Sequence record: NC_135731.1
DNA length: 64,000 nt
Strand: one strand, 5' to 3'
Origin: a phage
Position numbers and translations under genes: made by a program. Each line of letters starts with the position of its first letter. Within the stretch, counting starts at the first letter, position 1. Under the pieces are notes generated by a model. It saw only the letters and a program-made list of their open reading frames with translations. It searched no databases and was not told the origin of the DNA. Positions 6,530 through 46,322 of this stretch are shown one piece after another.

Positions 6530-7291
6530 ATGACGATACATTTCTTTTTTAATGATCACTACCCTTATTGGTACAAGGATGGTGATCTAATCTTTTGGAA
6601 ACCTGGCTGCAGTAGGAATGGAAATAGGGCTGGACACTACAACAAAAAGACTGGATATTTCCAAGTGTACAATAAGCTGACAAATGTTAAACGTGGCAGA
6701 CATAGGGAAATTTTTGACATGTTTTACGGATGTGTCACAGATACTTGGCATATTGATCATATTATCTCTAAGAAAAATTCTACTAACGGAGTGCCTGTAG
6801 ACAAGATAGAAAACCTTCAAATGTTGAAGCCTTGGGATAACTACTGTAAGAGAGCCTTGGAAAATGTGCAAAGCAATAACACCTCTACAGTGACTGGTGT
6901 GGTATGGCTGAAAAGAGAGGGTAAGTGGAGGGCAAGTAGAAGGATAAATAGGGTAAATGTTAGGTTGGGAGATTTTGACACTTTCGAAGAGGCTAAGTCT
7001 AGGGTTGAATGGTCAATAGCCAACCCGGAAGAGGCTTTAAAGATAGTTCCAAACCCGCACAAGAATAATATCCTGCCAGGTATTGATTGGTCTAAGAAAG
7101 ATACCTGTTGGAGGGCACGAGATAACAAAGGAAGAAACTTAAGGTGCTTCAACGACAGGAAGTGGCTAAACCCCTGGTGGGAGGCAGTTTGTGCAAGAAA
7201 GTCTTGGGAAGTAAACTGTCTCTACGGAGGAATGTCACTAACTGAGTGGAAGTTATCCAGAGGCTATCCAAGACCTTGTGTTGAGGATTGA
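6530..7291 (+). CDS. HNH homing endonuclease with AP2 DNA-binding domain
   Basis: HNH motif region HIDHIISKKNSTNG and AP2-like GVVWLKREGKWRASRRINRVNVRLGDFDTFEEA. Confidence 0.75.
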   Translation: MTIHFFFNDHYPYWYKDGDLIFWKPGCSRNGNRAGHYNKKTGYFQVYNKLTNVKRGRHREIFDMFYGCVTDTWHIDHIISKKNSTNGVPVDKIENLQMLKPWDNYCKRALENVQSNNTSTVTGVVWLKREGKWRASRRINRVNVRLGDFDTFEEAKSRVEWSIANPEEALKIVPNPHKNNILPGIDWSKKDTCWRARDNKGRNLRCFNDRKWLNPWWEAVCARKSWEVNCLYGGMSLTEWKLSRGYPRPCVED

Positions 7292-7570: not shown

Positions 7571-8035
7571 GTGGAAGACGGACGTTTAATGAAGTCTGAA
7601 CGCAGGCTTATTGTGCAACTGATCCCAGAAACAGCTTGGTATAATAACCTCCGAAACGCTGTGAAGAAGAGTGAGTGGGATAAGATCCGTAAGAAGTGCT
7701 ACAGAGAAGCCAACTACACTTGTGAGGTGTGCGGAGGTAAAGGCAGCAAACATCCAGTGGAGTGTCATGAACTTTACACTTTCGAAGAGGGAGTGATCCG
7801 GCTTGTCGGACTGATAGCGTTGTGCCCAGATTGTCACACATCTGTGCATCCTGGGTTAGCAAATATCCGTGGAAAGTATGCTCAGGCAGTTAATCAGTTG
7901 GCTAAGGTGAATAAGATCACCAAGGGTATGGCAGAGGCCTATTACCGAGACTGCTTTGCAGAGTGGCGTGAGCTTAGTAAAGTTCCAGAATGGAAGACTG
8001 ACTTTTCGTGGATAGAGGGTTACCTTGATGGCTAA
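7571..8035 (+). CDS. zinc-binding HNH-like nuclease family protein (putative)
   Basis: CEVCG ... HPVECHELY ... CPDCH pattern; GTG start after GAGGAG RBS, or ATG at 7589. Confidence 0.45.
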   Translation: MEDGRLMKSERRLIVQLIPETAWYNNLRNAVKKSEWDKIRKKCYREANYTCEVCGGKGSKHPVECHELYTFEEGVIRLVGLIALCPDCHTSVHPGLANIRGKYAQAVNQLAKVNKITKGMAEAYYRDCFAEWRELSKVPEWKTDFSWIEGYLDG

Positions 8036-8324
8036 GAAACCTGCAAAAGAGAAATTTGATAAGACAGCTTTTGTATTCGATACACCTCTGGACGATATCA
8101 TCAGAGGTATGCAAGCCTTGTATAGGAAGTCTGAATCTGAGCAGTTGTCGGAATCAGAGCTTTACTGGTTGGGTTGGTGGGAGCTTAATCTACCTAAAGC
8201 TGAAAGCTCTAATCTAAAAACCGTTAAAACTTGTGCCCAAGAAAATGCTGCACTTGGAATTTACCACAAAAGAAAAAGATCAACAAAAAGCTCTCCAAGA
8301 AAGACTAAAAGTCTTGACAAATGA
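8025..8324 (+). CDS. hypothetical protein (99 aa)
   Basis: ORF overlapping previous stop; lysine-rich C-terminus. Confidence 0.4.
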   Translation: MMAKKPAKEKFDKTAFVFDTPLDDIIRGMQALYRKSESEQLSESELYWLGWWELNLPKAESSNLKTVKTCAQENAALGIYHKRKRSTKSSPRKTKSLDK

Positions 8325-8376
8325 GTCTATGATCTGATATTATCAGTTAACTATTTATTAACTAGGAGAACTAGGT

Positions 8377-8685
8377 ATGCTTAAAATTTTTATTGTTGAA
8401 GATAAAGATATCGTCCAGTTGTATGCAAATGAGAATCACAAAGGTATGATTCTGAAGAAGGCAAGCAACCTTCATGAAAACACAATTCAACCTGGCGATG
8501 TAATTAAGATCTGTGGCTATCTGATACCAGACTCCTTGATGAAAATAACCCACCACTGGGGGTCTAATCTGTTCCTTTTTGAAAAGTATTGGGATGTTGA
8601 GTCACTTATTGCAGAAAGTGATGATGCATTTCATTACAGCATCCAACCATCTTGCAGAATAACTAACAGGAGGGGCTTTGAGTAA
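8377..8685 (+). CDS. hypothetical protein (102 aa)
   Basis: ORF with AGGAG RBS. Confidence 0.45.
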   Translation: MLKIFIVEDKDIVQLYANENHKGMILKKASNLHENTIQPGDVIKICGYLIPDSLMKITHHWGSNLFLFEKYWDVESLIAESDDAFHYSIQPSCRITNRRGFE

Positions 8686-39190: not shown

Positions 39191-39496
39191 TGGTGCACGA
39201 TTGCATACCTTGGACAGATAATCTCATTACAGAGCGTTTAAGAGCTTCCTACAAACAACTCCATATTTCGAGCGTAGCGAGAACGCACGTCCGTTTTGAC
39301 CCAAATCACCATACGCTCGGATTTTAACCAAACCCTCGCGGCGTTTCTGTTGACACATTGCCACTCTCGTGATAGTATCCACACATAGTTTGGAGAATAT
39401 GAGGTACACAATGAGAACATTGTCCGAAGTTTTGGTGGTGATCCTGATGATCATTATGTCCATAGCGGCTGTTGCCGGAATACTCACGGGTGGAAC

Positions 39497-39709
39497 ATGA
39501 TAAACACACATGCATCTGAAGATACATCCAAAGGAGTGACTATATGTCCCTTGGCTGAGCCAGTGAAAGAGGAAAACTTCGATTCTGAAGATTCTCCATC
39601 TTCGCTCCAGGTAGATCCTGAGGCTGACGACCTAACGTGGGAAGACATCGTAGATATCTGGTTCTCTATTATGCCTGAGCACGAAGAGTTCAGGGGTGGT
39701 AGACTATGA
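39497..39709 (+). CDS. hypothetical acidic protein (70 aa)
   Basis: ATGA overlap with preceding 29-aa membrane peptide ORF (39411-39500). Confidence 0.35.
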   Translation: MINTHASEDTSKGVTICPLAEPVKEENFDSEDSPSSLQVDPEADDLTWEDIVDIWFSIMPEHEEFRGGRL

Positions 39710-39830
39710 AGCACCGAGCCCACACAGGTTCCTCATGCTAAAGCATGGCCTGAAGAGGCAAACGTGTATAATTCTAGCGTATTGGAACGTATAAAACCCT
39801 GTTCACACTCTCATTCCCAGAGGAGATTTC

Positions 39831-40046
39831 ATGAAGATAGAAATATTTGGTGGAGCTGACAACACTCGTGGCCTGATTTACCTTGAATTCGATGAATCAT
39901 ACCTGCCAGAGGTGTTAAATATAGACTCTGTTGCTGAGGCTTTGGGAGTAAACCCTAAAGAACTTCACTCTTGTGCTGAGATTGATGGTTGGGAGGAGAC
40001 CATGAACATCGATTTTAGTGAAGTAGGGGATGAACCACTGGACTGA
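39831..40046 (+). CDS. small acidic protein, MKIEI paralog family
   Basis: MKIEIFGG start; last + strand gene before non-coding hub. Confidence 0.5.
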   Translation: MKIEIFGGADNTRGLIYLEFDESYLPEVLNIDSVAEALGVNPKELHSCAEIDGWEETMNIDFSEVGDEPLD

Positions 40047-40395
40047 CACACAATTAGCTGCCTGGCTAAAGTGCTGGAGCACCTATAGCACATCTTTCAA
40101 CTAAATTTCCTACCACCACAATCACTTACCTCCCACACATGACTGTTTGCTTGTTTAGTGAGCAGTCATGCCTTGACATTCTTGTCTATCCTGATAAAAT
40201 TAAGTTCTTCTCTTTTCTTTTACCGAGTAATTCGGGTTTTCTGTTCTCTTCGGTTTGAAGGGGTATGGAGATACACCTGAGTGAACAGGGTGAACAACCG
40301 AACCATTGGCTATGGCATTAGCATGGCGAAGCGGACGGGTGACGAAAGAGGGGCCGGAGGACACTAGTCACTGCCATATGATATATGGGTGATAA

Positions 40396-40958
40396 CCTGA
40401 AGAGTCTGAATAAGTGTTTAAGTACCAGTCAGAGGAAAAGGTGAATGGTAGCCGAAGGGGGAGGGGGGTTTCTTGTATCTTTAATTTGTATATTATGCAT
40501 ACACTTGTAAACCAATCTCATCTGAATCTGTTTACCACACAAAGTGGATTGAGACAAATATTACCTATTAAACCTGAATTATTTATAGAAAATACCACAA
40601 CACCACTTAAGTCTTTGATTTTACACATAAATCCTACAGATATTCACCCTCCATATTTAACATACTTGTAACATATCCCATACTCTACCTGTCTGATCAA
40701 TTTCCCCAACCACATCCCCATATTTTCCCTTCCTGTACTACCCCTGCCCCGCCGGGAGTCCCGTCATATCTGGCTTTCCAGCAAATATCACACCCACAAA
40801 TATCATTGCCTGAAGAGGGTTTCATCCCATAATACATGCCTTACCTGAAGAGCGCTTCATATACCCCGTAAATTTTTTAATTGACCCCCCTCCCCGCCGC
40901 CGGAGAGGTTGGCTTTTCCCACACAGACCTGAAGAGTCAGCCAGAAATATCTGAAGAG
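40396..40958. repeat. five dispersed YCTGAAGAG direct repeats
   Basis: Copies at 40396, 40809, 40844, 40928, 40950 in non-coding DNA. Confidence 0.6.
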
Positions 40959-41240
40959 GGTCCAGTTCTACCCTGTCAGGAGCCGGTAGCGACTGGAGTG
41001 CTGCCAGGCGGACGAAATGGGAATACTTCTCATTCTTATAACAATTCTCAAATATCGAGGCAGTGAGGCAAATTAATAGGTTAGGCCGTTCACACAGTGG
41101 CACAACATTTGCAACCTATCTTGTGGGAGTGAATGAGAATACCTATCATTGTGAGAATAGTTATCATTACGGGCAATTTAACATAATACCCATTATGCGC
41201 ACCACTGGCGATACATACAGGGATTGATAACATGAGTTAC

Positions 41241-42102
41241 TGTTTACACACATAACAATTATATTTCTTACTATTTGTGTGGGATATAGTTAGCAGCCGA
41301 TAGATTAGATATTGACCTGCGGACTTCTGACCATCTAGACGTCTAAACGCCCACACAACAAGGCTTATACATACATCGCTGAATGTAAACAGGGCCGCAA
41401 AAATGCTACCATACAAGCTTGTAAATTTTTCATGCAGCACTTGACAAAGAGGAGAAAAACTTGTCTGACACAATATGACTTAATTGCCACAACATGACAC
41501 TTTTGCACACCTGATTGTTTGCATATCTAATAGTTTACATGGATAACTGTTCACATACTTATCATTTACATGATTGACTGTTTACACAGAGATGATAAGC
41601 CATGCCATTCGTTTGCATGATAACAATTAACCAGTTTACAATTAACAAGTTAATAATCTTTCGCTGGCTATGCCAGGTGACTAGGTCACCCCTTCAGGTG
41701 TTTCTATGACATAATATAAAAGCAGGGCAACTATTAGCAGATCTATAGTTGCCTTGCTTGTCATGTCATGATTAACTAAATACAAGGCAACTATGATCTG
41801 ATTAATAGTTTGCAGACAAACTATCACGGGGGTGATGGTTACTGCTTTTATATTATGTCGCGACTCCGTCGCGCCATGCCATTCGTTTGCATAGTTGCCT
41901 TATTGTTACGAATAAAACAATTGCATTGTTAATGATTTCTTATCTTTCTCTTAGTCATCTAATGATTCCAGTCAGTATAGTAATGTACAGTAAACATTAG
42001 ACGACTAAAGATTTCTCTGTTTATTATAACTTACCGTTACAATTTCGGACTGTTTACCAAGAATGTTGACACATAAGCTGATTTATGTTATGCAGTTTAC
42101 AC
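41241..42102. repeat. iteron cluster, at least 8 copies of GTTTACA-type motif
   Basis: Copies at 41241, 41534, 41548, 41565, 41580, 41633, 42051, 42095; plus duplicated CCATGCCATTCGTTTGCAT at 41590 and 41864. Confidence 0.6.
41656..41839. repeat. nested palindrome / cruciform-capable region
   Basis: 18-bp perfect inverted repeat GACATAATATAAAAGCAG (41688-41705 and 41822-41839) enclosing palindrome GGCAACTAT...ATAGTTGCC (41706-41733); GGTGAC-TAG-GTCACC at 41656. Confidence 0.65.
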
Positions 42103-42517
42103 GAATAATTATTTTATGCAGGTATTGACTATTCCGTTATTCCATGGTTGGAATAAATACTTAGCAGACTATAGAATGGTGAGCGTACGTAAATTCTGAG
42201 ATCTGGCGGCTATAGTTATACTCGATTTTTCACGTAGAACACGCTTTTGTGAGTGTGTAAGTGTATGACTTATAAAGATTTTTAGTTGTTGACAAGATAT
42301 TGAAGATGTGCATCAGGTTAAATTTTGTGCAATAGCGGCATTACGTGCAATCTTGAGAGAGAAAACGGGTAAAAATGGCCCTGCTACCACACAATGAAAA
42401 ATTATGCAATAGTTATTTTACATGTATGTTTGTACAGTGTGTGGGATTGATGGCTAGTCAATTATTCCACTTGCCAGGCTGGGCCGTTTGTGGTAGGAGA
42501 AATACAGACAAAAAGAA

Positions 42518-42537
42518 AGGGGCCTTTTAAAGCCCCT
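42518..42537 (-). terminator. Rho-independent terminator for minus-strand block
   Basis: AGGGGC...GCCCCT hairpin followed on minus strand by TTCTTTTTGTC. Confidence 0.55.
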
Positions 42538-42555
42538 GATAGTTTAGTTAAGAAA

Positions 42556-42975
42556 TTATAATGATTCGTATATTTCATAGATTCGATTTGCCAGGTCGTT
42601 ACGGTAGCGGAATTTTTCCTCACGTTTGATCATCAGATCTTTAAAGCCATATTCTTTAAGCACTTCATTAACTTTATGGCGGCATACCTTCATATTATCC
42701 TGTGCGTCACCAATAAACCTGTTGCTATGGTGCATGGCTTTAATTTCTTCTTCCAGGACCAGGGCAACTATGCGGACCGGATCAAGCTGATAGGCGGTAA
42801 CATCAATGCGGCATTGTAAACGGCTTTTTACGTCTGCCACCGGATATACTGCAACCTCTTCCCCGTCAACATTGACAATAATTAGTTTACCATCGATTTC
42901 GAATCCTTTCGCCGCCGGACCGTGACAAAAAGCGTTATCAAAGCTATATGCCGGATTATTAGATTTAATGTTCAT
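42556..42975 (-). CDS. hypothetical protein (139 aa)
   Basis: ORF with GAGG RBS; sigma70-type promoter upstream. Confidence 0.55.
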   Translation of the reverse strand: MNIKSNNPAYSFDNAFCHGPAAKGFEIDGKLIIVNVDGEEVAVYPVADVKSRLQCRIDVTAYQLDPVRIVALVLEEEIKAMHHSNRFIGDAQDNMKVCRHKVNEVLKEYGFKDLMIKREEKFRYRNDLANRIYEIYESL

Positions 42976-43024
42976 GGTGTTTTTACCTCTTAGTTAATTT
43001 TCTTACAACTTCCCTTCAAAAAAG

Positions 43025-43053
43025 AATATAGCAAAACTGCCGATCCTTGTCAA
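43025..43053 (-). promoter_or_regulatory. sigma70-type promoter (minus strand)
   Basis: TTGACA-17 nt-TATATT on minus strand. Confidence 0.5.
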
Positions 43054-43120
43054 CCAAGGATAGCATAATTTTTATGTGATCAAGGGGCTTTATTGCCCCC
43101 TGATCGTGCAACTTGTTGTA

Positions 43121-43384
43121 TTATTTGTTGCTCATCCAGTTTTCCCAGGCTGCCTGATAATCTGCCTCACTGCGGCGGATCTCTTCTTGCTCTTCAAGTC
43201 GGATCTCTTCTTCCAGGTACCCCAAGATATCGGCTTTTTTGGTCTGGCGTAACATCCAATCATCTTTTTTACGGGTAAAGATCTTGTACGCTTTCTCGCA
43301 AACCTCTTTTTTGCTACCTTTTTGGACTTCAAGAACTTTGTAGGCCATGTACTGAACTAGTTTAAGCTGATCAAGACGTTTCAT
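43121..43384 (-). CDS. hypothetical charged protein (87 aa)
   Basis: ORF with AAGAGG RBS. Confidence 0.5.
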   Translation of the reverse strand: MKRLDQLKLVQYMAYKVLEVQKGSKKEVCEKAYKIFTRKKDDWMLRQTKKADILGYLEEEIRLEEQEEIRRSEADYQAAWENWMSNK

Positions 43385-43444
43385 GATGTTTACCTCTTTG
43401 TGTGGTTCTGATTAGTGGGCCTCCCGGCCCGTGTCATTATCTTA

Positions 43445-43717
43445 TTACTTACGGCGGCAGAATTCAAGCGTTTTTAATTGATAATCTTCCTCAGCCTGGA
43501 GTACAACCGCCTCGATCATTTCGTTGGCATTGTTGAAGCCATACCCTTTAGCGAACTCGTCCGCACCACCTTCGTGATCATGTTCTGCGTTCATCGCTTC
43601 CACAAAATGGAATTCCAAATTGTTGAGGTAGGGGCTTGATGTGCCGTCTTCTTTTTCGATGAGATCCCAAATAGCATTAAAACGTGATTCGACTTCTTGA
43701 TTAATCCAGCTTGACAT
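43445..43717 (-). CDS. hypothetical acidic protein (90 aa)
   Basis: ORF with GAGAGG RBS; promoter/hairpin element in 5' UTR. Confidence 0.5.
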   Translation of the reverse strand: MSSWINQEVESRFNAIWDLIEKEDGTSSPYLNNLEFHFVEAMNAEHDHEGGADEFAKGYGFNNANEMIEAVVLQAEEDYQLKTLEFCRRK

Positions 43718-43825
43718 AGTGTTTTCCTCTCTTCTGGTTGTTGTGTGGGCACCTTTGCCCCTTCAAGATAAATGTTACCCCACCCCCCTGGCAGATGTCA
43801 ACGGTTTTTATAGTTCTTATATGAC

Positions 43826-43906
43826 AGGCAGGCCCGGTGATTGTCTCCCCCTGTTCCCAAGTGCCGCCCGTTTAATAAGAATAGCAAAAGGGGCCGAACA
43901 AGTCAA
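43826..43906 (-). promoter_or_regulatory. promoter plus conserved GC-rich hairpin leader (copy A)
   Basis: TTGACT-17 nt-TATTCT (43878-43906) followed by GGGAGACAATCACCGGGCCTGCC core (43826-43852); homologous to copies at 52847 and 52983. Confidence 0.5.
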
Positions 43907-43935
43907 CCCCAAAATCAGTACCAAAACACTTTTAT

Positions 43936-44247
43936 TTATACGGTCCGATCATTGGCCTTTGTCCAGGACCTGGCGATCCGTTTCCCGGTCACCTGGAACG
44001 GAGGCTGCATTGTGTGTAATGAGTCCAGAGTAAGGGAGGACCGTTTACGGCGTATCTTCAGGATCGCCAATGTATTGTCCATCTCACGGCCAGGTCCTGG
44101 GCGGTATGGTGTGCCTCCAGCGTTAAGGTTGATGATCTCATGTATTGAGATCCGGCGTTGTTTTGCTTCCGCATCTTTGAAGATAGCCAGCGGAGGCGCT
44201 ATGCGTTGCCGATACCAATCTAAAACGGTTGGCGTAATAGCGATCAT
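43936..44247 (-). CDS. hypothetical protein (103 aa), doubtful
   Basis: ATGA-coupled to upstream gene but 3' half overlaps GC-rich repeat-like DNA. Confidence 0.3.
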   Translation of the reverse strand: MIAITPTVLDWYRQRIAPPLAIFKDAEAKQRRISIHEIINLNAGGTPYRPGPGREMDNTLAILKIRRKRSSLTLDSLHTMQPPFQVTGKRIARSWTKANDRTV

Positions 44248-44435
44248 ATTTTACCCCCTATGTAGTCCGGTCGGTTTTTCTCTGTCATACGCTTAAGCAA
44301 TTCTTGCATGTTGCTTATGGCTTGTAGTGTATCCTCTTCAAGGGATGAATCAAGATAATCAGGATCATTCTTCACCTTGCAATGATTATGATAACGCAGT
44401 ACCGCCAGTACTTTTTTAACTTCTTCCGCTGTCAT
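44244..44435 (-). CDS. hypothetical protein (63 aa)
   Basis: ORF. Confidence 0.4.
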   Translation of the reverse strand: MTAEEVKKVLAVLRYHNHCKVKNDPDYLDSSLEEDTLQAISNMQELLKRMTEKNRPDYIGGKI

Positions 44436-44580
44436 TATCGCGCCTAAAACAATGAGTTAATATATAACACCAGATCGCTGACTACCAGGACAACATTAAT
44501 CAGCACATACCTAACCATAAAGGGAAAGATCGCCAGCATTGCCGCCACGATCCCCATGGTAATAATTATCTTTCTTATGG

Positions 44581-44865
44581 TTAACGGTTCACGTAAGTTT
44601 TCCCGTTCACGGTTATGGGCAGATCCTCCAGGTCTGGATCTTCCTTAAGGTCGCGAGCAAGCTCACCGCACCGGATACCCTCGAATCCGTAGTACTCTGT
44701 TGTGCCGTCCTTAAAAGTTTTAGCGGCAAGGCATAAGCGATAAGTAACCCCGATTTGATTGACGGCATGAATATCCGTTAGATTAACCTCTTTTGCCAGC
44801 TCTTTAGCCATTACAGGCGCATTAAGTCCAACAACCAGGGTAACCACTGCGATCATCTTTTTCAT
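44581..44865 (-). CDS. small secreted protein with signal peptide (94 aa)
   Basis: N-terminal MKKMIAVVTLVVGLNAPVMA signal-like sequence; AAGAGG RBS. Confidence 0.55.
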   Translation of the reverse strand: MKKMIAVVTLVVGLNAPVMAKELAKEVNLTDIHAVNQIGVTYRLCLAAKTFKDGTTEYYGFEGIRCGELARDLKEDPDLEDLPITVNGKTYVNR

Positions 44866-44956
44866 TGTGTCTATCCTCTTTCTGCTACGTTTAAGGCGGC
44901 GGTAACCGCCTGTTTATGCTTTGTTGGTTAATTTTCAGGTATCTGTATAAATTAAA

Positions 44957-45277
44957 CTATGCTGTACGCTCAACTATAACAACGGTTTGGGGGATCTCCC
45001 CTTCCACCACTAGTAAGGCCTTTTTCTGCGTGATAGATATCTTTACCCGTTGCAGCGTGGCGGTGAAGTCTTTCATTTCGTCACGCGGTGTTTTAGTGCA
45101 GTACCAGATCTCAGGCTTGCCGATCTGTAAGTTGCGTAAAAATTCCGTTTTGCCTGTTTTGTTTTTGTAACCGTTATAACCTTTATTGCTTTTCATGGTG
45201 TTTACCTCTTCTTTGTTCCAGGTGGCGGACCATTCCACCGCCTTATGTATTATGCTTTGTAAGATGGCTGTTGTCAA
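44957..45277 (-). CDS. hypothetical lysine-rich protein
   Basis: ORF; start uncertain (internal MKSNKGY possible). Confidence 0.4.
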   Translation of the reverse strand: MTTAILQSIIHKAVEWSATWNKEEVNTMKSNKGYNGYKNKTGKTEFLRNLQIGKPEIWYCTKTPRDEMKDFTATLQRVKISITQKKALLVVEGEIPQTVVIVERTA

Positions 45278-45538
45278 ACTATTTTAACGATAATCATCGT
45301 ACGCTTTATTAACCTGGCGGATATAACATTCAAAAGCCAGATCAATAGATTTATATTCACGGCTATACTCACCATAGGAAACCACATACATTTCTATAGC
45401 TTCCTCATATGCGAGGAGAATAGAATCTAAGCCTACGATCTCGGTCTTTGCAATAATAGCCATGATTTTTATCCTCTTTGTGGTTGGTGGGGCTTGTTGC
45501 TCCCTTTGATTTATATATTACAGTTTTATATGGTCATG

Positions 45539-45772
45539 TCAACTATTTTCAAAAAATTTTTCTGCTGTGATATTCTTCCCGGTAGGGTTCGCTACTTTCA
45601 AAATTCTATCATGCACCGGACGCCCGAAAGAATAAGATCCGTATACAGTAAACCAATAATCACCGTCAGGCTGTACTATTACCGCCGCATATGGTACGCC
45701 TTTCTCGTTATTGCTAACAAAATAGATCACATTGCCATTAATAGCCTCGGTGCGTTTAATTTGTTCCATCAT
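45539..45772 (-). CDS. hypothetical protein (77 aa)
   Basis: ORF with AGAGAGG RBS. Confidence 0.45.
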   Translation of the reverse strand: MMEQIKRTEAINGNVIYFVSNNEKGVPYAAVIVQPDGDYWFTVYGSYSFGRPVHDRILKVANPTGKNITAEKFFENS

Positions 45773-45836
45773 GATGATTTACCTCTCTTTATTTTCATAA
45801 TTTTATGCTGTAGGGGCCTTTTCGGCCCCGCCAGGT

Positions 45837-46121
45837 TTATTTATTGATAGCGTGCAGCGGGAAAGCTACGCCAGGTTGATAAATAACCTTTACAACCTCA
45901 TCAGGACAAAAGAAGTTGCAGAACTCACCGCAGTAGGCCTCATCCTCTTTCAACTCTTCATTAACATACTCAAAAAAGTAGTCGATGCTTGGATAATCCT
46001 GGCCGGGATTATAGTCAACCATCGTTAATAATAACTCTTGATCATTCCGTAGGATATGCATACCCGCTTTTAAGTATTTTGCTTCCATTTCTACTACATC
46101 GCCAGCGGTAACAATAGCCAT
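45837..46121 (-). CDS. hypothetical acidic protein (94 aa)
   Basis: ORF with GGAG RBS. Confidence 0.45.
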   Translation of the reverse strand: MAIVTAGDVVEMEAKYLKAGMHILRNDQELLLTMVDYNPGQDYPSIDYFFEYVNEELKEDEAYCGEFCNFFCPDEVVKVIYQPGVAFPLHAINK

Positions 46122-46322
46122 GATTTTAACTCCTATCTATCTGGTCAATGATTGGGGGCCTCCCCCTCGACAACTCTTATTATCCATATTGTCGGGAATG
46201 ATGCAAGTACTTCTTTAAAAATTTTTTAAGCTCCTTAGGGCCGTTGTAACGTCAAAACAATAAAGGCTATGCGATTGCATAGCCTGCTAGTGTTTAGGTC
46301 GCTGTAGGCCCTGCCTGGGGCC

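Follow-up and report, generated by a model that had tools for sequence, protein, structure and literature searches.

The window analysed here is the 64,000-nucleotide (nt) stretch of phage record NC_135731.1, and the subject of this work is the gap at positions 40047–42555, where a block of + strand genes and a block of − strand genes converge. Over the gap, Escherichia phage phiWec196 matches the window at 100% identity, and 120 other rV5-like (Vequintavirus) records match it at 88–96%; in all of them the gap is present and separates the 2 gene blocks. Judged by this similarity, the window is from a Vequintavirus. Nineteen of these records, named "Campylobacter phage" (flagged UNVERIFIED and carrying no annotation), are 88–94% identical to the window over the gap and are probably mislabelled or contaminant genomes. 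In the rV5 genome paper (2013, PMC3606486), the gap was drawn as a grey box marked "non-coding", without open reading frames (ORFs), and a change in guanine-cytosine/adenine-thymine (GC/AT) skew at this location was tied by the authors to the switch in transcription direction. The cumulative GC skew indeed peaks at the gap. The rV5 reference record, like most others, has no annotation in it. The original prediction, made from the sequence of the window, that no credible ORF lies here agrees with our comparison: ORFs of 30–93 amino acids exist, most of them interrupted in 17 aligned relatives, and those tested show no third-codon-position bias, unlike a flanking control gene with [6,4,16] variable sites by codon position. 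The alignment of the gap comprised 18 genomes, the window and these 17 relatives.

Terminal repeat and chromosome ends

The centre of the gap is occupied by the following features (a caret marks the position of the DNA end).

40998–41013, + strand: left boundary motif GTGCTGCCA^GGCGGAC, putative terminase cut site
41007–41465, no strand assigned: direct terminal repeat of 459 bp; left end of the virion DNA at 41007, right end at 41465
41441–41466, + strand: right boundary motif TTGACAAAGAGGAGAAAAACTTGTC^T, putative terminase cut site

The ends are evident from the way in which related genomes were deposited. Four records begin at the position equivalent to window 41007 (position 961 of the gap used as query) and 3 break at the equivalent of 41465 (query position 1419). 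The record of HdK5 does both, beginning at 41007 and ending at 41465, and its first 459 bp are 100% identical to its last 459 bp; its first 40 nt correspond to window 41007–41046 and its last 40 nt to 41426–41465. The ECP2303 record ends at 41465 and restarts with the very next base, the first of a TGACAC-type array. Since the linear genome begins at 41007 and its last base, a genome length further on, is 41465, both ends of the virion DNA carry the segment 41007–41465, as is typical of T7-type short direct terminal repeats. Terminal repeats of 458/459 bp have been reported for the genus Vequintavirus (PMC6563267, PMC7471380), and fixed, non-permuted ends for the congener Gotham and for Klebsiella phage KPP-1. 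Together, the ends of the HdK5 and ECP2303 records and the published repeats identify the gap as the region of the physical chromosome ends, and in the present assembly the terminal repeat is collapsed to a single copy. Thus, of the functions originally suggested for the gap, namely a replication origin, a packaging or DNA-injection control locus or a cluster of structured RNAs, that of a packaging locus was correct.

The conservation profile follows the same boundaries. Identity is 0.9–0.99 inside 40997–41471, 0.51 in the 25 bp to the left and 0.4–0.66, with repeat-unit indels, in the 230 bp to the right, so that its edges fall at both ends of the repeat, as at T7-type ends with conserved boundaries. 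The alignment shows that identity drops beside the repeat because the numbers of short units vary between genomes.

The boundary motifs are conserved beyond the genus. KPP-1, a member of the genus Mydovirus in the same subfamily, has a T7-type direct terminal repeat of 514 bp mapped by sequencing coverage and PhageTerm (PMC9862379), and this repeat lies, as in the window, inside a gap where 2 gene blocks converge. The left end reads GTGCTA^GACGGAC in KPP-1 and GTGCTGCCA^GGCGGAC in the window; the right ends are TTGACAAGGAGAGAGAATTGTGTT^ and TTGACAAAGAGGAGAAAAACTTGTC^, respectively, and their distances from TTGACA are equal within 1 nt. The divergent contig L009 becomes similar to the window again from 41006 onward, and its right-boundary motif, TTGACAAAAAGAGCGTAATTTGTT^, is directly followed by an array of AGGCATAC units. 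The boundary motifs are therefore common to the mapped ends of KPP-1 and the predicted ends of L009. The interior of the repeat contains 3 TGAGAATA..TCATT units at 41018, 41134 and 41152 (repeat family D4), and similar AATGAGAAT units are found in the KPP-1 repeat. Written as TGAGAATA(N)TTATCATT, the window units occupy 41018–41034, 41134–41150 and 41152–41168; by eye they resemble a Fur box, with approximately 13/19 matches to GATAATGATAATCATTATC.

These comparisons establish where the ends lie and that the boundary motifs are conserved. With a probability of about 0.87, we conclude that the gap represents the chromosome-end (concatemer-junction) region of a phage with T7-like packaging, in which each unit-length DNA molecule is bounded by short direct terminal repeats. 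The terminal repeat is already known for the genus; we found no description that links it to the gap or gives the anatomy of the gap.

Two records are rearranged around the repeat. Shigella phage CM1 (L013, MK962749; 1780–1900) carries the terminal repeat twice, with a 63-nt TGACAY array in between, and the second copy begins exactly at the left-end base. Phage I29 (L012, ON286975; 1475–1530) has a different, 545-bp tandem duplication (window 40679–41223) and a 53-bp inverted join. Both rearrangements have the appearance of assembly effects due to the repeat or the ends, although they may be real.

Conserved and variable elements around the repeat

The arm to the left of the repeat, which forms the right end of the chromosome, contains a promoter, a conserved block and a set of short motifs.

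40173–40200, + strand: sigma-70 promoter, TTGACA-16-TAAAAT with TG extension, 11/12 consensus matches, firing toward the right chromosome end
40207–40470, + strand: ultra-conserved non-coding block downstream of the promoter
40396, 40809, 40844 and 40928, + strand: CCTGAAGAG copies, invariant, kept in 17–18/18 genomes
40950, + strand: TCTGAAGAG copy, kept in 3/18 genomes only (the window and 2 relatives)
40620–40905, + strand: C-rich, G-poor tract with 2 CCCC(T)NCCCCGCCG motifs (40741, 40886) and AAATATCA repeats (family D19)
40960–40996, no strand assigned: hypervariable junction with variable numbers of ..C(T)ACAGGAG(T)GCT.. units, identity 0.51 with indels

The segment 40097–40470, which includes the promoter and the block, is 99–100% identical in the 17 relatives, compared with approximately 0.90 for the flanking genes. 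The spacer of the promoter varies, being 18 nt in L029, with both hexamers preserved; a sister clade has TTGCAA-17-TATAAT. Downstream, the block consists of a 5′ pyrimidine tract, a small hairpin with a U-run (40223–40235), an invariant core CTGAGTGAACAGGGTGAACAAC with 2 inverted TGTTCAC sites at 40281–40296, the element GTTTAAGTACCAG and a G5AG6 tract at 40458–40469; CTGAGTGAACAGNGTGAACA and GTTTAAGTACCAG are invariant across clades. Searching with a pattern derived from the block retrieved the sister clade, at approximately 75% identity (L025–27, L030, L033, L034, L036, L043 and L046), and an intermediate contig, L038. About half of the metagenome hits to this pattern were chance matches to its 20 bases alone; even so, it worked better than the flanking 139-amino acid gene, with which only 3 IMG/VR loci were obtained. 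A 2-nt indel between the clades abolishes any common reading frame in the block. No match to the block was found in 5,426 Escherichia coli genomes, and a host-derived origin was rejected on this ground. In L009, a gene for an HNH homing endonuclease is inserted between the promoter block and the repeat-proximal part; its product (256 amino acids, 7716–8486, + strand in that locus) matches the Pfam family HNH_3 with E=1.6e-18. The block may specify a transcript for junction processing or priming, or serve as a DNA-binding platform.

The 5 YCTGAAGAG repeats of the original prediction were recovered exactly, at 40396, 40809, 40844, 40928 and 40950, all on the + strand and all pointing toward the terminal repeat. 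The expected number in the 563 bp that they span is approximately 0.01 (Poisson P approximately 8e-13). The divergent L009 gap likewise has 5 + strand copies, and CCTGAAGTGTCAGCC of KPP-1 (general form CCTGAAG[A/T]GTCAGCC) corresponds to CCTGAAGAGTCAGCC of the window. Elsewhere in the window, the motif occurs 5 times, in each case inside a long + strand ORF, where CCT-GAA-GAG would encode Pro-Glu-Glu if in frame; a role of CCTGAAGAG as a genome-wide promoter or signal was rejected on the basis of these locations. Hammerhead ribozymes were also considered and discarded: CUGAAGA agrees with the core CUGANGA, but the stem II/GAAA context that a hammerhead needs is either missing or lacks conservation in L009, and the Rfam hammerhead models matched nothing in the gap. 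The pyrimidine-rich tract noted originally is real as well, with a pyrimidine fraction of 0.71 at 40650–40749 (5 G, 38 C), and KPP-1 and L009 have comparable C-tracts with AAATATCA units to the left of their repeats.

Beyond the right boundary, the repeat is adjoined by arrays of short units.

41466–41510, + strand: TGACAC-type array directly after the right boundary, spacing approximately 9–10 bp, copy number variable between genomes
41511–41645, + strand: array of 15–16 bp units with the core (C)TGTTYAC(A), copy number hypervariable (families D1–D3)
41241, 41385 (− strand), 41990 (− strand), 42051 and 42094: further TGTTYAC-type copies

The second array corresponds to the iterons of the original prediction, which had counted at least 8 GTTTACA-type copies between 41241 and 42102. 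In its exact form, the motif occurs only 6 times, and the count stands for the degenerate NGTTYAC, with 9 copies. Exact GTTTACA is not significantly enriched in the whole window (17 versus 11.3 expected), whereas TGTTYAC is approximately 11-fold enriched in the gap (9 versus 0.81 expected, P=2e-7); the rV5 array has 8 + strand copies. The 2 GTGAACA copies in the invariant core of the promoter block are the reverse complement of the array motif TGTTCAC, so that the same motif is mirrored on the 2 sides of the repeat and both chromosome ends display it with the same polarity relative to the end. A reading of GTTTACA as promoter −35 elements was dismissed, there being by eye no suitable −10 element at 16–18 bp, and a promoter scan of the arrays revealed no strong promoter.

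The remaining features are hairpins and palindromes.

40138–40170, + strand: hairpin with a 14-bp stem, located between the last + strand gene and the promoter and close to both, fold z=−4.4
41599–41892, no strand assigned: module bounded by the 20-mer direct repeat GCCATGCCATTCGTTTGCAT
41708–41859, no strand assigned: palindromic core, read as face-to-face intrinsic terminators
42518–42537, − strand: intrinsic terminator of the last − strand gene, from terminator scan and folding

The direct repeat, predicted as a duplicated 19-mer, is a 20-mer, GCCATGCCATTCGTTTGCAT, at 41599–41618 and 41873–41892. An 18-bp perfect inverted repeat exists and does enclose additional palindromes, as originally described, although it is located at 41708–41725/41842–41859, 20 bp to the right of the position first given. 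On the − strand, a hairpin with a 15-bp stem (41759 to 41720; fold z=−6.3) is followed by UUUUAUAUUAU, and on the + strand a hairpin at 41812–41845 (fold z=−2.7), which was listed by the terminator scan, is followed by the same UUUUAUAUUAU tail. Since the arms of the inverted repeat form the U-rich tails of both hairpins, the nested palindromes are best read as face-to-face intrinsic terminators, and the Murica record has a terminator annotated at this core. Such a pair would stop leftward transcription before it enters the repeat and rightward transcription before it reaches the − strand genes. In the sister clade, the module has the same layout with a different 18-mer, and the GGGG-loop hairpin is kept with different stems and no U-tail; thus, termination may not be its sole role. 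FV3 lacks exactly 41619–41872, the segment between the 20-mer copies. That the module is dispensable is not established by this case, given that FV3 alone lacks it and 117/121 records keep the core. The hairpin at 40138–40170, for which the sister clade has a counterpart at the same place with a wholly different stem (CATGACTG/CAGTCATG versus ATACCTAC/GTAGGTAT), is probably a terminator or 3′ stabiliser of the + strand block.

At the right edge of the gap, the last gene of the − strand block (42556–42975, − strand; 139 amino acids, no Pfam match) is absent from HdK5, in which similarity skips from 42539 to 43082, and is replaced by a 264-nt gene adjoining the gap in FV3, SYGMH1 and APCEc02, indicating that it is an accessory gene. 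The 380 bp downstream of this gene (42176–42555) are approximately 75% similar to L009, within a single alignment (42176–42995) that runs into the flanking gene and includes ATAGTTGTTGACA...ATGTGCATCA. The only ORF within these 380 bp (42375–42530) is broken in 14/17 relatives, and another non-coding element may therefore lie there.

Interpretation and alternative functions

The features can be combined into a model of end formation. In concatemers, one copy of the repeat would lie between the right arm (40047–41006) and the left arm (41466–42555). Terminase would recognise the region and cut at GTGCTGCCA^GGCGGAC and TTGACAAAGAGGAGAAAAACTTGTC^TGACAC, and the repeat would then be duplicated by strand-displacement synthesis, by analogy with T7 and T3. 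The phased arrays beside the boundaries and the 4 invariant CCTGAAGAG sites appear to be the likeliest protein-binding platform for end processing, and the TGAGAATA..TCATT units inside the repeat are candidate binding sites too. Both gene blocks are transcribed toward the ends; the putative terminators at 40138–40170, 41720–41759 (− strand), 41812–41845 (+ strand) and 42518–42537 (− strand) would keep convergent transcription off them, and the sigma-70 promoter would fire through the invariant non-coding block of 260 nt toward the right end.

Several observations weigh against this model or parts of it. The ends of this phage are assigned by homology to relatives that are 91–94% identical, and some records may simply have copied the start convention of HdK5. 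Headful packaging with partial permutation has been inferred for another Vequintavirus (PMC13211470), in conflict with fixed ends. The copy number of the arrays varies between near-identical phages, which is unusual for an essential recognition site. Finally, the promoter block is absent from the KPP-1 gap; this absence and the HNH insertion in L009 make the block a separable module outside the core end machinery.

The organisation resembles that of well-studied phages to different extents. T7 and T3 share with the window the presumably fixed ends at which a few hundred base pairs are repeated, the location of the repeat in a gene-free stretch with short repeat arrays alongside, and a promoter a few hundred base pairs to the left of the right-end repeat that reads to the junction, comparable to T7 phiOR. 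The present phage differs in being a 138-kb myovirus transcribed by host RNA polymerase, in that both gene blocks run toward the ends, whereas T7 early genes run away from the left end, and in having boundary motifs, CCTGAAGAG copies and TGACAC/TGTTYAC arrays without a T7 sequence counterpart. In lambda cosB and the pac sites of P1 and SPP1, arrays of small-terminase binding sites adjoin the cut. Short motifs phased by approximately one helical turn directly beside a putative sequence-specific cut (TGACAC, 9–10 bp) are similar to these, although here the sequence and number of units vary even among close relatives and the end type is that of direct repeats rather than cohesive ends or headful packaging. 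The gap is thus a known kind of locus, explained by known biology, with inner conserved parts that are unexplained.

The alternative that survives best is compatible with a chromosome terminus: the region would also hold, or mainly be, a replication origin, either of the iteron/DnaA type, with the TGTTYAC arrays as initiator sites, or primed by transcription, with a G-rich transcript from the promoter at 40173 entering an R-loop at the G5AG6 tract. For the latter form, ColE1 RNA II, T4 oriF and mitochondrial CSBII provide models. We regard an origin as possible but doubtful. The enrichment of TGTTYAC in tandem 15–16 bp units with a common core and an AT-rich neighbourhood (GC 0.32–0.35 at 41450–41650, in the left arm) recalls lambda ori, plasmid iterons and oriC, and the inverted copies of the motif in the invariant core, the purine-rich RNA-sense strand of the block (G=35 and 31 per 100 nt) and the GC skew peak point in the same direction. 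Yet nowhere in the gap is conservation lower than in the arrays, which vary in number and sequence between close relatives; there is no initiator gene next to the gap, the promoter block is missing from KPP-1, and the skew switches where the direction of transcription changes, as pointed out by the rV5 authors (PMC3606486). DnaA boxes divide the clades: the sister clade has an oriC-like cluster of 2–3 perfect boxes, TTATCCACA, within approximately 45 bp inside its predicted repeat (L009:6845–6884, − strand; also L026, L027, L033, L034, L043 and L046), whereas no DnaA box (TTATNCACA) was found at ≤1 mismatch within 39384–46179 of the window, nor does the window clade have any. The papers searched contained no experimental origin mapping or transcriptome for this subfamily, and none of them dealt with an origin or entry-control role of the gap.

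It is unlikely that structured non-coding RNAs make up most of the gap and that the 260-nt block is one of them, a stable functional RNA; the corresponding suggestion of the original prediction is not supported. The block is more conserved than genes and yet non-coding, and it is preceded by a strong promoter that is conserved in both clades despite the freely varying spacer; the small hairpin at +17 is paired in both clades through different bases (CCGA/TCGG versus CCAGA/TCTGG), and in the RNAalifold consensus a G:C pair is exchanged for C:G in one 7-bp helix. However, fold energies of the block equal those of shuffled sequences (z=−0.76 on the + strand, +0.31 on the − strand, neither significant), independent folds of the 2 clades have only 2 base pairs in common and share no helices, no defined 3′ end is conserved between them, and part of the RNAalifold covariation stems from misaligned pyrimidine tracts; the compensatory pairs seen were isolated ones. 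A long-range pairing of GGGGAGGGGGGT (40458) with ACCCCCCTCCCC (40884) was likewise rejected, the C-arm of this 12-nt complement having 2 alleles and the G-arm being fixed, without covariation. Rfam 15 contains no family matching the gap at E≤1 apart from a suhB-like match (42503–42571; 22.5 bits versus a gathering score of 41), which is the terminator hairpin at 42518–42537, and searches for transfer RNA and transfer-messenger RNA genes found none.

Rather improbable, too, is the proposal that the promoter block and the TGTTYAC array constitute one undescribed end-specific system, in which a phage or host protein binding both would synapse the 2 terminase cut sites or start replication from the ends, with the G-rich transcript as activator or primer.

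A subterminal region controlling DNA entry or anchoring the ends, in which host or phage proteins would bind the nested repeats during entry, as at the T5 injection-stop region, is less probable again and in our view a poor candidate. The T5 region (bioRxiv 10.1101/866236) is similar in general appearance, being a large non-coding subterminal region that is more conserved than the neighbouring ORFs, and contains paired DnaA boxes 3 bp apart; the same spacing separates boxes 6845–6853 and 6857–6865 of L009. Some members accommodate a homing HNH gene within the region: T5 has an HNH gene between its repeat regions, and L009 has one inside its gap. On the other hand, the window clade has no such boxes, there is no report of two-step injection in this group, and the T5 region, which serves such injection, lies inside a 10-kb repeat with pre-early genes, whereas the repeat here is 459 bp long and gene-free.

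That the gap conceals small protein-coding genes is extremely improbable: phiWec196, Mangalyan, PMBT16 and other records annotate 1–13 hypothetical coding sequences in it, but these annotations are inconsistent between records and missing from the rV5 reference and most others, and the idea was rejected on the interrupted ORFs and absent codon-position bias described above.

The chromosome-end reading, then, explains a gap that has been left blank since the 2013 rV5 paper and provides base-level end coordinates for widely isolated E. coli phages that are therapeutic candidates. These coordinates help to orient genomes, to detect duplicated or collapsed repeats in assemblies and to choose safe sites for engineering. 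Current concepts would change only if the promoter block were an origin or an end-synapsis element. The promoter block, the 4 CCTGAAGAG sites and the 2 cross-genus boundary motifs are strongly constrained and unexplained, and thereby offer targets for the study of how ends are cut and copied in large myoviruses with short terminal repeats.

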